From a virus (Duplodnaviria; Heunggongvirae; Uroviricota; Caudoviricetes): a stretch of DNA of 41,518 nt. The DNA lies in the IMG/VR virus record IMGVR_UViG_2802429248_000002; one strand, written 5' to 3'. Below are positions 3,377 to 26,429 of the stretch, piece by piece. Under the pieces are notes generated by a model. The model had not been told where the DNA came from, searched no databases, and worked only from the letters and a program-made list of their open reading frames with translations. The translations under genes were made by a program, and so were the position numbers. Numbering within the stretch: the stretch's first letter is position 1; each line of letters begins with the position of its first letter.

Positions 3377-6133
3377 TTAGCTACTTTCAAGCATTGCAAG
3401 ACGTGATTCTATTTTTTCGATTCTTCTACGCAAATAAGCTGACTCAAGCCATAAACACTGGTCAGTACGGATACCCCACCTATTTCCAGCCTTGCAAACC
3501 AGAGTTCGCTCTTCTGTTTCGTATTCTTCTTCCATCTCAATTTCGACGCCATCCACAACTTTAGTGATCATCCTTACCGCCATCACTGGCGCGTATTTAT
3601 CATCCCATTCATCGTAACAGAGAAGGCCAAATCTGGTTCCATCAATCCCATGCGCGAGGAAAGTGTCTCTCACTTGTTGTGCTATAACACCAAAATGCCA
3701 GCGGGCACCATCTCCCTTTTCCCTGACGGCATCAAGCCAGCGAAAAGCTACAATCCTGATATCTCCCCATGCATCCAGAATTGCATCACCTTCATAACCA
3801 CGAGACATATACAAGCTGAGCTCACTTGTACTAATCGGTTCACTTTTTTCTCTACCATCTGATGTGTTTATCGAACCGTTCGCAGAATAAACCTGTGCCC
3901 ATCTAAATGATGGTGCACCAAGAGATTTGCTGTTATCAATAATTGGTGAAAAATTACCTTTAATAGCAATATTTCCAGAGTCGCCGAATATATTAATAAC
4001 TGCAGAGTCATCACCATGGTTTTTTACGCTTAAGTTTCTTGATGAAATATTTATATCTTTGTTATATCCACTAACATTAATCCATCTTTTACCATCAATG
4101 TGATACCCGTAAATATTTCCGTTTGATTGTTCGTCAGGTGACTCTCTAAGAACAATAGCATCTACTCCAGACGACCATTGTATTTTTGTATCTGTAGGCC
4201 TCCAGTTCTTTATAATGAACGAACCATCAGTAAACTCCGTTTTTATTTGTCTATTGTCTACAAATGCGTCTCTTGGTTTAAACTCACTTGTGTTAACGCT
4301 GCTCTGAAGATCAGAAGCAAAAAATCTAAGATTTCCTGTATAACCCTTAGTCTCGGTCAGGTTATACGCAATCATAATTCCATTTTCAAACTCAGATGAT
4401 GTTATTTTAACATCACGGCAATCACCAAAAATGCAATTTCCTTTATCAAATGTTGTTTGAGCTTTGAATTTATCAAACCTTAAATTACGAACAGGGAAAC
4501 CATCAACCTCTAATGCAAAGGATGCAGGAAGGCCAAAGTATTCTGATGGCTTACCTGATGTATGATCAAGAGTAGTGGCTACTGTATTCTCAAAAACAGT
4601 CCCGCTAAAATTATTACCAATTGACGGAAACCTGATTACACTTATTGTACCTTGTATTTCAGGAGAAATACCAGATAGTGTGATGTTAGCTCCATCAAAT
4701 GATGCATCTGAATACGTATATACTGATTCACTGCCAGCAATTTTAAACTGTTTAACTGAAGTTATTCTCATCGACTTTTTATGTTTAAATGTCACTGAGC
4801 TTTCAGTATTACTTACAAGATCAATCTGAGGGCTATTCCTTATCGCGATCCCTGACTGGACATAAACGTTATTAAAGTGCGTTTTTTCAGGATTTCCCTT
4901 CATTGAAAGGCTCCCGTCATTTTCTGTCAGTAGTAGTCCTTTTACCCTCCAATAGCCGACAATCTGTACGTTATCAATAACTGAATCACAGCTATCGTAT
5001 ACATGCAACCCTATATCCCAGTCATCACCCAATGAATAAGAATCAGGGTTATTGTATCCTTCAATACCATTTTTACTTACCATTATTCTCAGGTTGCGTA
5101 ACTGTGATGCCCTGTTGATACTAACAGCTACGCTCATGGCTTTTGGTGTAGCAGGAGTAACACCTACAGAATCTTCATTTGTAAACTCAGTGAACTTACA
5201 AGATATCCCTTCAACAATTTTAACTGGTCTTTCATTAGAGATGTTAAAAAAATATTTGTTTTTTTCTCCATCACCAGTAAATACAAGATGGGTTCCTTTA
5301 CTCCAACTTTTTAATAATCTTTCAGGCGCTGGTCTATATGTATCCCAATAATCAATGCCATCACCAATTAAAGACACTCCAGGAGGCACATCTATGTTCT
5401 TAGAAATCATCCATTTACCTGCAGGTATTCTAACGACACTTGCACCAGAATTTATCGCATTAATTAACCATTCAGACGCATCAACTTCAAAATTTAATGC
5501 AGCATATCTTTGCTCAAACGGAACAAAATCAAGAGCGTTAACGTTATCCCGCATCTTATCCTGGAACGTTCGGTATACTGCTCCAGAACCATACTGAATA
5601 AACCAACCAAAACCACCAACAACTCCGGCGATTGCAGCATCAACATAATTGCGCATTGATCGATTATTTACAGCATCCTGCTCAAGTGATGGATCTGCAA
5701 GGTTAGAAATTTTGTTTTGCTTTGCATCGTAATATTTTGCAAGCAAAGATGGTTTCATCAATGCACGTCTGAACCATCCAAAACATTGCTGGATCAGCAT
5801 CGTCAGATAGTCAAAGGCATCTTCATGCACCTCGGGGAAAAATTTTCCCTGATTACGAAGATCAGTCTCCTGCACCACATCAAGCACACGATCTATCGTA
5901 ATTCGCCATCCAGCAGCAAGCGGCGACGGAAGAACAACAGAACCGCCACTATAAGTGCCCGCCCCTGTTACCGTATAACCGGTATCCAGAACCAATTCTG
6001 TTACGTTCCCGTTCAGGTCAGACACCTGAACAACCAGGTCGGATTTTTTGAAAATACGGAAGGTATACGGAAATGATGTCGTAGCTCCGTTACCTGTGTA
6101 TTCGTTGTGGTCAACTTCGGTTGAGACCGTCAT
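3377..6133 (-). CDS. Tailspike protein with C-terminal intramolecular-chaperone-like domain
   Basis: 918 aa. N-terminus MTVSTEVDHNEYTGNG..TSFPYTFRIFKKSDLVV resembles the conserved particle-binding head of epsilon15/phiV10-type tailspikes (memory). Central region is Asn/Ser/Gly-rich as in beta-helix depolymerases. C-terminal ~150 aa (..TSDGREK..) resembles the self-cleaving chaperone domain (peptidase S74-like) of endosialidase-type tailspikes. Confidence 0.8.
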   Translation of the reverse strand: MTVSTEVDHNEYTGNGATTSFPYTFRIFKKSDLVVQVSDLNGNVTELVLDTGYTVTGAGTYSGGSVVLPSPLAAGWRITIDRVLDVVQETDLRNQGKFFPEVHEDAFDYLTMLIQQCFGWFRRALMKPSLLAKYYDAKQNKISNLADPSLEQDAVNNRSMRNYVDAAIAGVVGGFGWFIQYGSGAVYRTFQDKMRDNVNALDFVPFEQRYAALNFEVDASEWLINAINSGASVVRIPAGKWMISKNIDVPPGVSLIGDGIDYWDTYRPAPERLLKSWSKGTHLVFTGDGEKNKYFFNISNERPVKIVEGISCKFTEFTNEDSVGVTPATPKAMSVAVSINRASQLRNLRIMVSKNGIEGYNNPDSYSLGDDWDIGLHVYDSCDSVIDNVQIVGYWRVKGLLLTENDGSLSMKGNPEKTHFNNVYVQSGIAIRNSPQIDLVSNTESSVTFKHKKSMRITSVKQFKIAGSESVYTYSDASFDGANITLSGISPEIQGTISVIRFPSIGNNFSGTVFENTVATTLDHTSGKPSEYFGLPASFALEVDGFPVRNLRFDKFKAQTTFDKGNCIFGDCRDVKITSSEFENGIMIAYNLTETKGYTGNLRFFASDLQSSVNTSEFKPRDAFVDNRQIKTEFTDGSFIIKNWRPTDTKIQWSSGVDAIVLRESPDEQSNGNIYGYHIDGKRWINVSGYNKDINISSRNLSVKNHGDDSAVINIFGDSGNIAIKGNFSPIIDNSKSLGAPSFRWAQVYSANGSINTSDGREKSEPISTSELSLYMSRGYEGDAILDAWGDIRIVAFRWLDAVREKGDGARWHFGVIAQQVRDTFLAHGIDGTRFGLLCYDEWDDKYAPVMAVRMITKVVDGVEIEMEEEYETEERTLVCKAGNRWGIRTDQCLWLESAYLRRRIEKIESRLAMLESS

Positions 6134-6238
6134 GTTAAATCTCCAGATAGTCGCAGCACCCGTTGCGCCGCATATCTGGTTATTCTATTACCTGAAAAAC
6201 CACATATGGATAGAAAGACTGTAAATACGAACAGATAT

Positions 6239-8898: not shown

Positions 8899-11373
8899 TT
8901 ATTGCGGAGTGACATCCTGAGGTCGCCACCAGTATGTCTGGTTAAACTCTTTCTTCGAACGTTGCTCCATTTTACGCAAATAGCCTGGTGAAAAATACTC
9001 CTGCATCTGGTTAAAGATCATATGATCGAGAGCCGCCTTCAAGTACCAGAGATTCGCACCTGGCATCAGCCCCTTCCCCAGCTTAACCAGATCACCACCA
9101 GTCTGCTCACTCTTCCCTTCCACAGCATTTAGCGGTATGCCCTGAGCTATCTTCACTACGTCATCAACCAGACCAGCTACCGGGCCAAGCATCGACGCCA
9201 GCGCGCCGCTCCCGTACCTAGTGTGGTCAGAGAAAAGAAAATCACCGTACAACCCAGCCCCGCCACCTTTTAAAAATGCATTTATCCAGAATTTAACCAT
9301 GTGGTCACCGGTCATTTCCTTTGGATTTCTCCCATTAATAAGATCAGTAATCTGCATGGAAAGAGCACCAAGCATGGTTGTGCTTGCTAAAAACGTTGCT
9401 ATATATGCTGCACGCCCACCAGCAGACGGCATACCCATAGCGCGTGACCAGTGACGCATAACAACCGAGATAGGGAACGATTTAAACAGGAAAACACTTC
9501 TCGTTAATTCACCTTTCCATGTTCCACGCTGAAGACCAGACCCTACGAACATCTGCTCACGTGCGCCCGGTGTAATAACAGCCATATCAACTTCTTCAGT
9601 TACGGCACCGAGCAGTTTACGCATTGCCTCAAATTTCACGCGTTCAGGCTCACCAAGATGTTTAACTGCTGAATCAGGGATACGCATAATGCTTTCCGGT
9701 GTCAGCATCGTATTATTACCGTTCCCCCAGTCCTCCTGTTGCGCCAGCTTCCATACGCTCCAGTCTGTGTCAGTAATCCCTTTACTTTTCAGGATACGAA
9801 AATCAGAGTCATCGAGGCTACGAAGGTCTGGTGTCCGTGACACTACTTCTCCCAGGCTTCCCATCATGGTTACGCCATAGGCGCGCTTGTGCGCATCTGA
9901 CCATGCTGTAAGCCCACTGGCACGCATTACCGCCGTTGCCGCCCAACGAGACACAGACGGCCCCATATTATCCATCGCCCAGCGGTTAACGCTGCCAAGT
10001 AGAGATTCCATCGCCAGGCCAGCGCGGCGCGCCCGCGCAAGCTCAGTACGGTTCGTTGGGTCCATAGCTTCAAGCTGGTTGCGAAATAACTGGTTCATTG
10101 GAAGGTTGGTAACCTTCGCAGACAGATACATGGTTCCAAGATCAGAGAACGATGACAGCAACGCGGATCCGAGTCTGCTGGCAACCAGCCAGTTGCGGAT
10201 ATTGTCAGACCATCGCGCGATGTGCGGATTCGCTACAGGCTGTGTTTTTCCGGAAATAAAGTTGTACAAGTTCTCTGTTTTGTTCGCCAGACGCTCGACG
10301 CTACCGGTTTTACTCGGGTTAGCTGTTGCCGTTTCTGCCTTAACCTGATCAAGAAGGGAGCGGAAAACATGATCGGGGTTTGGACCATATGTTTCCACCA
10401 GAGCAATATCTTTACTGATACCTTCCAAGTGACCGACCATGATTTCCCATAGAGAGCGATCACCATAAAGTTGTTGATATTGGAGATAGGAATCTGCATC
10501 TTTGAAATGTATCTGTCGTGATGCATTACCACGGTTAGCACGTGCGCCGGAAATTCGCATTCCGGTATCAGTAAGCTTATTCAGCCCACCAGTAGCGATC
10601 GTGTTATAAGCCTCTCCAAGAAATGCAGACAACTCGGCATCGTTCATCAGTTGTCCATCGGCTCGGGTATAATATTTGCGATCCAGCTTACCTATAACAT
10701 CGCCAACCCACTTATCCTTTGATACCGCCCCAACCTTTTCCATAGAATGATGTTGAGGGATCCCCCAGTTTTCGAGATAGCCAATGTCCCCACCAGCATC
10801 ATTAAACCGGCGGCGCAGCAGCTCTGTAACTTCTCTCCACGCCTTAGCACCTTTTCTTGCTTTAGCATTGCCAGTATTTTGCCCCCGCATTTCATATACC
10901 AGGTCACGTACGCCCGCTTCATCTTCAAACAGACCAAAAAAGCGAGGATCAACTGCTTCGAATGCCTCCTGCAATTGACTCAATGCATAATCACGGGTGG
11001 CTTTTGTTCTGGATTCAACAGAGAGGAAATTAGATTTACCGTCTGCATTAAAAGCTATAGTACGGTTAAGAGCTCCAAGTTTCCCATCAGCCCCTTGATA
11101 GCTATTGATAAATTTATCCAATCTCTGACGCGCGGCTATAGTGAGAGCCACACGACGTTTCTTTAATGCCGCTTCTCGCTGTAATTCTTCAGATGCCAAT
11201 TGTGCTGCTCGATATAGCCGCTCTGATTCGGAAAGTTGTCTCCACGACATCGGGTCATCACGAGCAATGGAGCGCATATTTCGATAAATGCGGTCTTCAA
11301 TGTTCTGTATTTCTCGCGCCGTTAACGTGCGCTGCGCCGCCTGCTGGACCGCTTGTATACATTCCTGTCTCAT
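8899..11373 (-). CDS. Large internal virion (core/ejection) protein, gp16-like by position
   Basis: 824 aa, last large ORF of the internal-protein series preceding the tailspike module; assignment by size and synteny only. Confidence 0.5.
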   Translation of the reverse strand: MRQECIQAVQQAAQRTLTAREIQNIEDRIYRNMRSIARDDPMSWRQLSESERLYRAAQLASEELQREAALKKRRVALTIAARQRLDKFINSYQGADGKLGALNRTIAFNADGKSNFLSVESRTKATRDYALSQLQEAFEAVDPRFFGLFEDEAGVRDLVYEMRGQNTGNAKARKGAKAWREVTELLRRRFNDAGGDIGYLENWGIPQHHSMEKVGAVSKDKWVGDVIGKLDRKYYTRADGQLMNDAELSAFLGEAYNTIATGGLNKLTDTGMRISGARANRGNASRQIHFKDADSYLQYQQLYGDRSLWEIMVGHLEGISKDIALVETYGPNPDHVFRSLLDQVKAETATANPSKTGSVERLANKTENLYNFISGKTQPVANPHIARWSDNIRNWLVASRLGSALLSSFSDLGTMYLSAKVTNLPMNQLFRNQLEAMDPTNRTELARARRAGLAMESLLGSVNRWAMDNMGPSVSRWAATAVMRASGLTAWSDAHKRAYGVTMMGSLGEVVSRTPDLRSLDDSDFRILKSKGITDTDWSVWKLAQQEDWGNGNNTMLTPESIMRIPDSAVKHLGEPERVKFEAMRKLLGAVTEEVDMAVITPGAREQMFVGSGLQRGTWKGELTRSVFLFKSFPISVVMRHWSRAMGMPSAGGRAAYIATFLASTTMLGALSMQITDLINGRNPKEMTGDHMVKFWINAFLKGGGAGLYGDFLFSDHTRYGSGALASMLGPVAGLVDDVVKIAQGIPLNAVEGKSEQTGGDLVKLGKGLMPGANLWYLKAALDHMIFNQMQEYFSPGYLRKMEQRSKKEFNQTYWWRPQDVTPQ

Positions 11374-24677: not shown

Positions 24678-24884
24678 TTACTGACCAAGCAGCGTTTTAC
24701 CGCTGGTATTAGCGGTTGATGTGTCGCCCTGAGAACCGGTGAGCAGCGTAGAACTACGACCAGCAGCAGCGCGACGGCGACGAGTTTCTTCGTCGCGGGC
24801 ATCAACAACGGCGGCATCCTGCTCCTGTGGTGCTGCCTGAACTTCTGGTGTTGCAGGCACTGATGGTGAGCTACCCATGCACAT
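24678..24884 (-). CDS. Small disordered protein upstream of portal (hypothetical)
   Basis: 68 aa; GGAG 9 nt upstream of ATG; Ala/Thr/Ser-rich. The competing 24665-24904 frame starts at TTG and is disfavoured. Confidence 0.35.
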   Translation of the reverse strand: MCMGSSPSVPATPEVQAAPQEQDAAVVDARDEETRRRRAAAGRSSTLLTGSQGDTSTANTSGKTLLGQ

Positions 24885-24952
24885 ATCAATGACTCCGTAC
24901 GCAATTAAACTATTACCAATTTAACCACATATGATTTATTTATCGTAGATAG

Positions 24953-24989
24953 TTGACATTTAACGCACAAATTATTACCTTTCAGGTAA
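24953..24989 (+). promoter_or_regulatory. Sigma70-like promoter (TTGACA-17-TACCTT) overlapped by operator palindrome TTACCTTTCAGGTAA
   Basis: -35 TTGACA 24953-24958, 17-bp spacer, -10 TACCTT 24976-24981; palindrome 24975-24989 covers the -10 and start site. Points rightward into the leader and tRNA-Arg. Confidence 0.5.
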
Positions 24990-25311
24990 CCAAAGAGTTC
25001 ATTCCGGTTACTAACCTGACTGGCTTGTCGTTAAATTGAACAGGTGGAGTGAGCTTTTATTTTGAGCAGTACGGCGTATGGCACATGCGCCGGTAGCGGT
25101 CTGGATACGTTTAAGGGGCTCCCTCCCTTGCTCGGGCAAACGAACCAGGTAGCCGGAATGTGCAAGTCGAGCGGTTTTATTCCGCGCACGGGGATTCACC
25201 ATCCCGGCGATTCGGTGTGACGCCTCGGAAGAGACGAGGGTACAACGATGAGAGCATTTATGGAGCCGCGACAAAGTGTGGCGCCTTAACAGGCTAAGTG
25301 CTCTCAGCGTT

Positions 25312-25388
25312 GTGGCATTAGCTCAGTTGGACAGAGCAACCGCCTTCTAAGCGGTTGGTCGCAGGTTCGAATCCTGCATGCCACGCCA
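25312..25388 (+). tRNA. tRNA-Arg (anticodon UCU), phage-encoded
   Basis: Cloverleaf readable by eye: acceptor GTGGCAT/ATGCCAC, D-arm GCTC-AGTTGGACA-GAGC, anticodon stem ACCGC/GCGGT with loop CTTCTAA, variable TGGTC, T-arm GCAGG-TTCGAAT-CCTGC, discriminator G, encoded CCA. Confidence 0.9.
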
Positions 25389-25431
25389 GAATCACGCCTA
25401 AGGACCGTGATGCCAGAAGTTCCAGGGGCTT

Positions 25432-25473
25432 GGCGGTGATGGTTTCCCTTGAAGGGCTATCACCGCCCTTTTT
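25432..25473 (+). terminator. Intrinsic terminator downstream of tRNA-Arg
   Basis: Stem GGCGGTGAT (25432-25440) / ATCACCGCC (25459-25467) followed by CTTTTT. Confidence 0.6.
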
Positions 25474-25550
25474 ACAGCAGGACGCCATTGCGATGACTTC
25501 ATGCTGTAAACCAGTACAGCCACGGAAGGCATAACTCATTGCTTCCAGTT

Positions 25551-25576
25551 CGCCCGGTTCGCCGGGCATTTTTTTG
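25551..25576 (+). terminator. Second intrinsic terminator (TTCG tetraloop hairpin plus T7 run)
   Basis: GCCCGG-TTCG-CCGGGC hairpin (25552-25567) followed by seven T. Confidence 0.6.
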
Positions 25577-25591
25577 CTTGATGACCGCAAA

Positions 25592-25606
25592 TTACCTTAA
25601 AGGTAT
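25592..25606. promoter_or_regulatory. Operator palindrome TTACCTTAAAGGTAT overlapping the RBS/-10 region of the cargo gene
   Basis: Ends 4 nt before ATG 25611; a consensus TATAAT hexamer (25604-25609) overlaps its right arm. Confidence 0.45.
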
Positions 25607-25610
25607 AATC

Positions 25611-26429
25611 ATGAAAAACTTCAAGGTAATTAGCATGTTTGAATCGTTTAAAGAGCTGTTTTTATCTACTGCCAATACTGCCGTGAATCGAGCCAAAAAC
25701 CCTGTGCTTGGTGCTTTTGTTATGTCCTGGTGCGCCTTCAACTGGAAATCAATTCTTTATCTATTTTTTAGCAAATCAAACATAATAGATAAAATTTCAT
25801 ATATCTCAGATAACAGCACATGGAAAACTGTTATGTTTTATCCATGCTTATCTGTAATTGCTATCTGCTGCCTATTACCATGGGTAAACAATATCATTAA
25901 CGTATGGCAAGCAAAGCCTCTTGATAATAATGACTCAATCGAAAATCACCTGAAGGCAAGAAAAATCCAGCGTGAAACCAGACTGCAGAGGTTATTGGCT
26001 AAAAAAGATGTTACATACGACAAAGTTAAGACTGGCGCGGAAAAAGACATCCAAGAGATGAAAGAAGAGATTATTCGATCAAAGAATAGTATGGGGGAAT
26101 TGACTGCTGAGTTGAAAGCTAAAGATGACGAATTGAGATCCGCCAGTGCTCAGTTAGCAGCTCTAAATCATTCATTAAAAGAGATATCGGAAACTCTTGG
26201 AAGAATGAATGAGGCATATAAGACCCTCCAAAATGATTTCGACGAATACAAACTCAAATACCCTGAAAAATCTCAAATAAAAAGCCTTGCACTTGGCAAC
26301 GGCCAAACAATTAGCAACTTTTTGGAGCAACACAACTTATCCGGATTAAAATCTGGTAAGCCAAACGTTTTTAATAACTTTGGTGTTCTATCTGGATTAT
26401 CAGGTTTCGAGGATAAAAATAAAGACTAA
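25611..26429 (+). CDS. Membrane protein with C-terminal coiled-coil, function unknown (candidate abortive-infection/exclusion factor)
   Basis: Start taken at MKNFKV (ATG 25611). 272 aa; two hydrophobic helices near the N-terminus, then a long charged heptad-like region (..ELTAELKAKDDELRSASAQLAALNHSLKEISETLGRMNEAYKTLQNDFDEYK..). AT-rich by eye; opposite strand to the flanking terminase and portal genes. Confidence 0.55.
   Translation: MKNFKVISMFESFKELFLSTANTAVNRAKNPVLGAFVMSWCAFNWKSILYLFFSKSNIIDKISYISDNSTWKTVMFYPCLSVIAICCLLPWVNNIINVWQAKPLDNNDSIENHLKARKIQRETRLQRLLAKKDVTYDKVKTGAEKDIQEMKEEIIRSKNSMGELTAELKAKDDELRSASAQLAALNHSLKEISETLGRMNEAYKTLQNDFDEYKLKYPEKSQIKSLALGNGQTISNFLEQHNLSGLKSGKPNVFNNFGVLSGLSGFEDKNKD

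Follow-up and report, generated by a model that had tools for sequence, protein, structure and literature searches.

A modular structured non-coding RNA carried by temperate phages of Enterobacterales

The window (the whole stretch of viral DNA that was analysed, 41,518 nucleotides) was assigned by its sequence to a Uetakevirus (epsilon15/phiV10-like) phage or prophage. Positions 24880-25600 are 98-99% identical to phages TL-2011b and phiV10 and to O157 typing phages 9 and 10. The locus is a short plus-strand island with the portal operon on one side and the terminase genes on the other, both on the minus strand. The surrounding minus-strand operon spans about 32 kb; the island is its sole plus-strand unit and runs convergently towards terL. 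An earlier note on this DNA had described a promoter, a GC-rich leader of about 320 nt, tRNA-Arg, and strong terminators in succession, and all these elements were present. The GC content was 54% in the leader (24990-25311) and 61% in its core, compared to 48.8% in the whole window. The leader folded with -130.6 kcal/mol (z -3.6), and none of 100 shuffled sequences folded as well. Judging from the sequence, the window holds a full cassette in the order hairpin, core, hairpin, tRNA slot, hairpin, and terminator. The features, all on the plus strand, are as follows:

24953-24989, plus strand: sigma-70-like early promoter, -35 TTGACA at 24953-24958 and putative -10 TACCTT at 24976-24981
24975-24989, plus strand: probable operator palindrome TTACCTTTCAGGTAA, overlapping the early promoter
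24993-25058, plus strand: 5' hairpin (A'), basal stem of about 14-17 bp; -22.9 kcal/mol, z -2.7
25066-25241, plus strand: core structured RNA of 176 nt; covariance model R1, 142.9 bits, E 1e-43
25072-25092, plus strand: helix P1, hairpin CGGCGUAU/AUGCGCCG, 25072-79 with 25085-92, conserved loop GGCAC
25099-25150, plus strand: helix P2, 25099-25103 with 25146-25150, variable insert inside
25148-25166, plus strand: invariant 19-mer GGUAGCCGGAAUGUGCAAG, used as a search pattern
25171-25185, plus strand: helix P3, variable hairpin, GCGG..CCGC in the window (alignment A2)
25191-25217, plus strand: helix P4 (25191-94 with 25202-05, loop UUCACCA) and pseudoknot
25197-25200 with 25214-25217, plus strand: pseudoknot, CACC of the P4 loop pairing with GGUG
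25223-25239, plus strand: helix P5, hairpin CCUCG/CGAGG, 25223-27 with 25235-39, conserved loop GAAGAGA
25243-25312, plus strand: 3' hairpin (module A), basal stem of about 17 bp; -36.3 kcal/mol, z -5.85
25312-25388, plus strand: tRNA-Arg(UCU), the single tRNA found (ARAGORN and Rfam)
25391-25411, plus strand: hairpin AUCACG..CGUGAU (module C), common to lambdoid leaders
25432-25475 (scan site 25432-25467), plus strand: strong intrinsic terminator, 14-bp stem GGCGGUGAUGG.../...CUAUCACCGCC followed by a U run
25552-25576 (scan site 25552-25567), plus strand: second intrinsic terminator

The weak -10 element at 24976-24981 was read by eye, and the promoter scan made no call there. In the window, the motif TTACC(T)NNNN(A)GGTAA was counted at about 13 sites (26 counting both strands), compared to 0.43 expected. 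Sites were located at 6238, 7358, 7451, 24975, 25592, 32942, 33004, 34950, 35287, 35335, 36047, and 36108, including the divergent immunity region (35287 and 35335) and the promoter of the next gene (25592). Because the palindrome recurs in this way, we interpret it as a phage operator and infer that the unit is early and under repressor control. It is probably the repressor operator of the phage, marking about seven controlled promoters. The same arrangement of promoter and operator was found in other Uetakevirus loci.

Positions 24990-25311 encode a modular structured non-coding RNA composed of the 5' hairpin, the 176-nt core, and the 3' hairpin. The core has five helices including the pseudoknot, as derived from a seed alignment of 29 sequences (A2), in which 97.5% of the cells pair and both-side changes occur in 11 of the 26 pairs. 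An alignment of 81 model matches (74 distinct), which was fitted to model R1 and hence leans towards structure (seed A2 was not so fitted), gave 97.4% pairing cells and both-side changes in 13 of the 26 pairs. None of 500 shuffles reached these values, and slid controls paired at only 28-50%. Comparative folding of homologues, which had been suggested in the earlier note as a check, thus revealed a conserved structure, and the candidate structured RNA proposed there is strongly supported by covariation across the 74 distinct homologues. Full-length R1 matches were also obtained in phages that had been left out of model building (mEp390, Tyrion, and BUCT708).

The helices differed in the kind of variation that they showed. 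One pair of helix P1 is G-C or A-U at 36:36 among homologues, and in helix P2 C-G alternates with U-A (55:18) and G-C with A-U (70:3). Helix P3 varies in both sequence and length among members. Both-side changes were found in four of four pairs of helix P4 and in four of five pairs of helix P5. For the pseudoknot, a single covarying pair was detected, with CACC/GGUG replaced by AACC/GGUU (C-G to A-U) in seven sequences. Two inverted repeats pointed out previously turned out to be parts of this fold, CCTCG/CGAGG (25223-25227/25235-25239) being helix P5 and GGGA/TCCC (25191-25194/25202-25205) helix P4, and both carry compensatory changes in homologues. In a four-way alignment, CCUCG/CGAGG was substituted by CCUGG/CCAGG and GCCGG/CCGGC, and GGGAU/AUCCC by ACGC/GCGU. 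Instead of helix P1, RNAalifold suggested that GCACAU and AUGUGC pair over a long range; the columns of this pairing are invariant, and the local helix P1 is preferred because it shows covariation.

The unpaired segments of the core are extremely conserved across siphovirus, podovirus, and myovirus carriers. The 19-mer was also unbroken in those members that were retrieved without using it. A tertiary contact between a loop and the 19-mer is possible. In L009-type loci (e.g., L009 at about 9036-9115), the region of helix P5 is swapped for a segment about 92% identical to N4-like phages (Gamaleyavirus), and the matching Gamaleyavirus region bears a tRNA-Cys annotation in some records. Locus L022 has two full-length cores about 650 nt apart (minus strand, 4805-4963 and 3998-4158), which flank an inserted block of opposite-strand ORFs.

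The basal stem of the 3' hairpin is formed by CAACG-AU-GAGAGCAUUUA and GCUAAGUGCUCUC-AG-CGUUG, its last pair taking nucleotide +1 of the tRNA. Among 16 variants of this stem, cognate strands paired with -20.8 kcal/mol versus -15.5 kcal/mol for non-cognate strands, and better-than-cognate partners occurred in just 24 of the 240 non-cognate combinations. By this comparison of sequences, the basal stem is kept by compensatory changes. The interior of the hairpin is hypervariable (40-250 nt). In sequence, the 5' hairpin is akin to the 3' hairpin type, and it matches a site annotated as 'RNaseIII' in phage epsilon15. Related leaders in other Uetakevirus loci contain hairpins of the form CAAC..GCGCAC..GUGCGC..GUGUG.

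In relatives without tRNA, the slot of tRNA-Arg is occupied, at exactly the same junction, by the stem GUUGUGGU...ACCACAAC (module B). The stem GUUGUGGU..ACCACAA(CCA) resembles a 7-bp acceptor stem. The hypervariable modules of loci L072, L095, L099, and L008 include T-arm-like hairpins (GGTTCGATTCC) and degenerate tRNA-like matches. The terminator stem GGCGGU..ACCGCC recurs in homologous cassettes across different phage types. In loci L084, L041, and L028, the core is directly followed by a hairpin with a T-run and then by GCTCTTTAACAA, GCTCTTTAAAAA, or GCTCTTTAATAA; the first of these is identical to the rrn boxA core.

Core matches were detected in 1840 of 5426 complete E. coli genomes, at 2474 places, 554 of them on plasmids. 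The annotation under these 2474 matches contained nothing besides tRNA-Arg, and none of the matches was annotated as RNA. A distant BLAST search with positions 24990-25311 returned 86 phage records, and the part from about 25071 to 25311 was roughly 80% identical in lambdoid phages, the P1 group, and other Uetakeviruses. The 19-mer pattern recovered at least 120 contigs of IMG/VR, which group into 42 clusters when 93% identity is required, and 24 further stretches in about 20 species of Enterobacterales. A pattern search without the 19-mer returned almost solely the same loci, which indicates a family of little sequence divergence that, in the material sampled, is limited to Enterobacterales and their phages. 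Two contigs of metagenome-assembled genomes labelled Oscillospiraceae and Bacillota (L142 and L154) carried the exact 19-mer, L154 with a full-length core (168 bits); they are probably mis-binned enterobacterial phage DNA.

A scan with RNA-family covariance models, the other check suggested in the earlier note, gave no Rfam family at the element (Rfam 15; E<=10 on the window region and the gathering threshold on 12 homologous loci). The scans returned tRNA only, plus C4 and isrK elsewhere. In phage cdtI (L001, 777-965, minus strand), C4 and isrK were found in the antirepressor operon, and this site is unrelated to the core. The core family is absent from Rfam and is carried by temperate phages of Enterobacterales. 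Further put-like RNAs have reportedly been listed by King et al. in 2011. No description of the element was found in the literature searched on put and HK639, the ban operon, anti-sRNAs, Pas sRNAs, and ncRNA discovery; a mention by King et al. (2011) is possible.

Genomic surroundings were compared in 43 representative contexts. A tRNA adjoins the core in 10 of them, and none was present within the scanned flanks of the other 33; hence, the core is not a tRNA leader. The proposal that a tRNA precursor or tRNA-linked RNA is what defines the element is mostly unsupported, as the same core stands after the early-left promoter of lambdoid phages with no tRNA. In the commonest setting, that of SfV-like lambdoid phages without N, the core comes directly after the repressor-controlled early-left (PL) promoter, some 45 nt into the PL transcript, and is followed by a strong conserved terminator and an early operon of 6-7 kb in which no other promoter was found. 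Lambdoid carriers, including cdtI, mEp460, Ayreon, and Stx2c-converting phages, have the core just downstream of cI on the same strand. The upstream same-strand ORF encoded a CI repressor in nine of the nine cases tested (HTH_3 in all and also Peptidase_S24 in six).

In cdtI, the cI terminator is followed by a near-consensus promoter (TTGACA-16-CATAAT, 11/12) and, about 45 nt on, by the core. This PL promoter bears operator half-sites that are elsewhere confined to the PR region, and no further operator or promoter was found in the next 3.3 kb examined. The same layout occurs in mEp390. A strong terminator is present 120-600 nt downstream of the core in about 33 of the 43 contexts. Long co-oriented operons follow, the SfV-like early-left operon comprising yfdP/Q/R ... 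xis and int. No N gene is annotated, and no N-like product was detected between PL and int, in the operons examined. By location, the copies in cdtI, Ayreon, mEp390, mEp460, Stx2a_WGPS2, and 1720a-02 are put-like; those in the window, on the Uetakevirus island, and in phage P1 are not.

In P1, P7, D6, and SJ46, a core of about 170 nt is situated between trnI and ban and begins 15 nt past the tRNA. In phage P1, it lies 2.3 kb from the promoter, with no terminator within 900 nt downstream. Just past this core, an upstream ORF of 24 codons (L003, about 2700-2775) terminates in TAATG and shares nucleotides with the start codon of ban, which suggests translational coupling.

In Uetakevirus, the cassette is directed against the long late operon. 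In loci L063, L099, and L039, terL comes after the terminators, and no ORF of 90 aa or more lies ahead of it in the orientation of the cassette. Intact covarying cores with an operator-bearing promoter are retained in many Uetakevirus lineages; the hosts of phages with intact, compensated cores include E. coli, Salmonella, Enterobacter, and Klebsiella, and many of these cores have no tRNA. In epsilon15 (L004, 2545-2631), the core has been reduced to roughly its first 55 nt (40 bits), and the tRNA is missing. The 5' hairpin annotated there as 'RNaseIII' overlaps the first few nucleotides of the core remnant.

The position taken by the core is not reserved for it. HK022 and HK639 carry put at this position. 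SfV, ST64B, and phiNP share the operon, module B (GUUGUGG...CCACAAC), and the terminator; the core is missing, and another conserved element of about 75 nt is in its place. This SfV-type element was found in 49 phage records, among others SfV, SfII, SfIV, ST64B, phiNP, YeP1-3, mEp237, SPN3UB, and ZF40. It consists of ACAGGCAGGACGCCCACGAAGUAGCCGCC, a covarying hairpin CCUGG..CCAGG, and then AUGAUUCG. It is located directly after PL and is unannotated:

L170 (SfV), about 1590-1665: SfV-type element
L169, about 2375-2440: SfV-type element
L171, about 2200-2265: SfV-type element

The R1 covariance model showed no relatedness between the SfV-type element and the core. As the core, put, and the SfV type occur at one position, at least three unrelated RNA 'heads' share this slot.

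We tentatively favor, by analogy with put, the reading that the core is a nascent-RNA element acting on the polymerase that transcribes it. The put RNA alone acts on the zinc-binding domain of the beta' subunit of RNA polymerase and makes the polymerase terminator-resistant (PMC9378689). Like the lambdoid copies of the core, put (HK022 putL and putR, HK639 putL) follows a repressor-controlled early promoter of N-less lambdoid phages and precedes terminators and a long operon, with no phage protein gene in between. According to this reading, the RNA would be transcribed from the repressor-controlled early promoter upon derepression of the phage. The nascent core would fold and act on the polymerase making it, which would then resist pausing and termination both at intrinsic terminators and by Rho on the long untranslated leader. 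The long flanking hairpins might shield the core while it folds or be targets of RNase III. In the window, the whole PL-leader cassette would form an early unit complete in itself, with tRNA-Arg as a further product, and a cut by RNase P at 25311/25312, expected from general knowledge of tRNA maturation, would free the RNA on its 5' side.

The put-like reading draws on the position of the core, about 45 nt after the PL start and ahead of the terminator and the 6-7 kb operon, and on the displacement of the core by put and the SfV-type element at the same position. It is weakened because the core shows no detectable homology to put and is larger and differently built. With the filters off, model R1 scored -2.3 bits at putL and -1.3 bits at putR and found nothing at HK639 putL; nhmmer with the 5' half gave E values of about 9-17, and pairwise alignment against shuffles gave p 0.05-0.7. 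Rfam has no put family. The put RNA, about 70 nt long (its annotated length in HK639 is 126 nt), is built of two stems and a triplex. The core, which at 176 nt is 2.5 times the size of put, has another architecture, with five helices including the pseudoknot. Short strings common to the core and put, ACGGCG...CAUGCGUCG and CGG(C)AAUG(C)UGC, were noticed by eye and post hoc and are treated as a lead only. Beyond the put-like setting, the core family also occurs in phage P1 and in stand-alone Uetakevirus cassettes. The reading is weakened further by L063, L099, and L039, which contain nothing obvious to antiterminate and where read-through would be antisense to the terminase genes, and by phage P1, with its core far from the promoter and without a terminator in the next 900 nt, and epsilon15, which lost most of the core.

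A lambda-type nut site was also considered and rejected. Lambda nutL with the RNase III-processed N leader is likewise an early-left leader with a small purine-loop hairpin followed by a long hairpin that looks suited to RNase III, and the P5 loop GAAGAGA resembles the lambda boxB loop, GAAGA. Lambda nut differs in having boxA, a boxB hairpin with a GNRA-like pentaloop, and N, while the loop of helix P5 has 7 nt. No boxA consensus (CGCUCUUA) was found in 24990-25311, and a strict boxA (GCUCUUUA) follows the core in only 2 of the 43 loci. A boxA-like UGCUCUY lies inside a covarying stem, so it is the pairing and not the sequence that is conserved there.

A possible, though less probable, explanation is that the core is a processed, stand-alone RNA that acts in trans early in infection: a stable core RNA of about 180-320 nt would bind a conserved host factor or host RNA. 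It would be cut out by RNase P acting on the tRNA or a tRNA-like element, by tRNA 3' processing (in phage P1), and perhaps by RNase III acting on the flanking hairpins, and the terminator would end an RNA gene. The intact covarying cores of Uetakevirus, the punctuation by tRNA or acceptor-like stems, and the RNase III-type hairpins argue for a function of the RNA itself. Some Uetakevirus cassettes have their own operator-controlled promoter and terminators and no co-oriented ORF of at least 90 aa downstream, and the sequence of the terminator stem travels with the cassette in different phage types. Besides the tRNA that flanks the core in 10 of the 43 contexts, many others have the acceptor-like stem at the tRNA junction, and L072 and L099 contain degenerate tRNA-like matches. 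Stems of about 17 bp stand on both sides of the core. The core alone moved into phage P1, 15 nt past trnI, and the extreme conservation of its unpaired segments across phages of three morphologies suggests that they share a host partner.

Phage regulatory RNAs matured by RNase P offer a precedent: the c4 RNAs of P1 and P7 and the CI RNA of P4 are cut from longer transcripts by tRNA-type processing. Phage P1 carries both c4 and the core; the c4 and CI RNAs are antisense RNAs of about 77 nt, unlike the core, and the Rfam models C4 and isrK do not match at the core. GOLLD and ROOL are, like the core, structured phage RNAs that often adjoin tRNA genes. They occur in other phyla, however, and their Rfam models give no match here. 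Their size, about 580-800 nt, is far above that of the core. What speaks against action in trans is that, in lambdoid phages, an RNA gene ending at a terminator of -20 kcal/mol would split the sole early-left promoter from its operon in the absence of N. Moreover, the unrelated put and SfV-type elements at the identical position point to a role in cis tied to the leader, and no complementarity to a target was identified.

It is unlikely that the cassette is a passive tRNA leader or hitch-hiking remnant, with tRNA-Arg captured from a lambdoid leader together with functionless adjoining sequence. The module order and the terminator are indeed common to lambdoid leaders, and epsilon15 has only a truncated 5' remnant without tRNA. 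But diverse Uetakevirus lineages keep intact compensated cores, many of them without tRNA, and a tRNA is lacking in 33 of the 43 contexts.

We consider similarly improbable a catalytic or ligand-sensing RNA, i.e., a self-cleaving ribozyme or an aptamer controlling a downstream terminator or ribosome-binding site. The pseudoknot, the invariant junction nucleotides, and the variable peripheral stems would suit such an RNA. In phage Tyrion, the 3' strand of helix P5 (GACGAGG) is the annotated ribosome-binding site of a small gene, and in L084, L041, and L028 the hairpin with its T-run directly follows P5. However, variable modules of 120-600 nt, including the tRNA, separate the core from the terminator, unlike a riboswitch platform, and this geometry led us to reject a riboswitch with an adjacent platform. 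The downstream genes are heterogeneous or absent and form no consistent class, and no Rfam ribozyme or riboswitch matched.

For the phage group of the window only, a cis-antisense regulator is a further, very unlikely explanation; the plus-strand RNA would affect processing or timing of the late polycistronic mRNA (terL to gp3/portal). The unit is indeed the lone plus-strand unit in the minus-strand operon, converging on terL from a promoter with a phage operator. Antisense action leaves the conserved fold unexplained, and the lambdoid and phage P1 contexts have no antisense partner.

A small protein-coding gene on either strand can practically be dismissed: although ORFs are present and 'hypothetical protein' is annotated here in some phage records, indels are not multiples of three, there is no codon periodicity, no frame is kept, and the substitutions are compensatory for helices. 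The statement that no ORF exceeds about 25 codons held for ATG starts but not when GTG and TTG starts were allowed, which gave the following ORFs:

25062-25220, plus strand: ORF of 52 aa
25160-25297, plus strand: ORF of 45 aa
minus strand: ORF of 87 aa

No reading frame was open across all homologues, core lengths fell into all classes modulo 3 (14/9/6), and variable columns had no 3-periodicity (27/27/24). The minus-strand ORF had been suspected to be spurious, and this was borne out, its frame being neither conserved nor 3-periodic; the minus-strand ORFs of cdtI and the window have only their first 24 or so residues in common.

The core belongs among the early-leader RNA elements of phages and may be a new class altogether. 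It is conceivable, and to us a serious though speculative prospect, that it represents a previously undescribed class of large phage RNAs with a pseudoknot and with no relation to put. Such an RNA would either reprogram the host transcription machinery in a new way or be a ribozyme or a decoy for host factors that is the first to be expressed upon derepression. It would then be a module exchanged among lambdoid phages, Uetakevirus podophages, and P1, and N-less temperate phages would have at least three heads to choose from for the start of their early operons, namely put, the SfV type, and the core.

About one complete E. coli genome in three thus carries a 176-nt RNA whose structure is supported by covariation, yet this RNA is unannotated and outside Rfam. 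It also occurs in Stx2c- and Stx2a-converting phages and in P1, and E. coli, P1, and lambdoid phages are among the best-studied systems. If the core is an antiterminator, this would explain how the strong terminator after the sole early-left promoter is passed in the large N-less SfV-like group, which includes Shiga-toxin and O-antigen-converting phages, and the core would be a second and much larger RNA-only class beside put, the single known example. If it acts in trans, it would be a new early phage RNA directed at a target in the host. Either way, it offers a defined, readily mutated element for the study of early gene control in medically relevant prophages, and recognition of the family would correct many spurious 'hypothetical protein' calls.

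Downstream of the cassette, positions 25611-26429 (plus strand) contain an AT-rich ORF of 272 aa (36% GC). By eye, its product has the look of a membrane and coiled-coil protein; a Pfam search gave no significant match. The ORF has its own TATAAT promoter with an overlapping operator, is moron-like, and varies among related phages.
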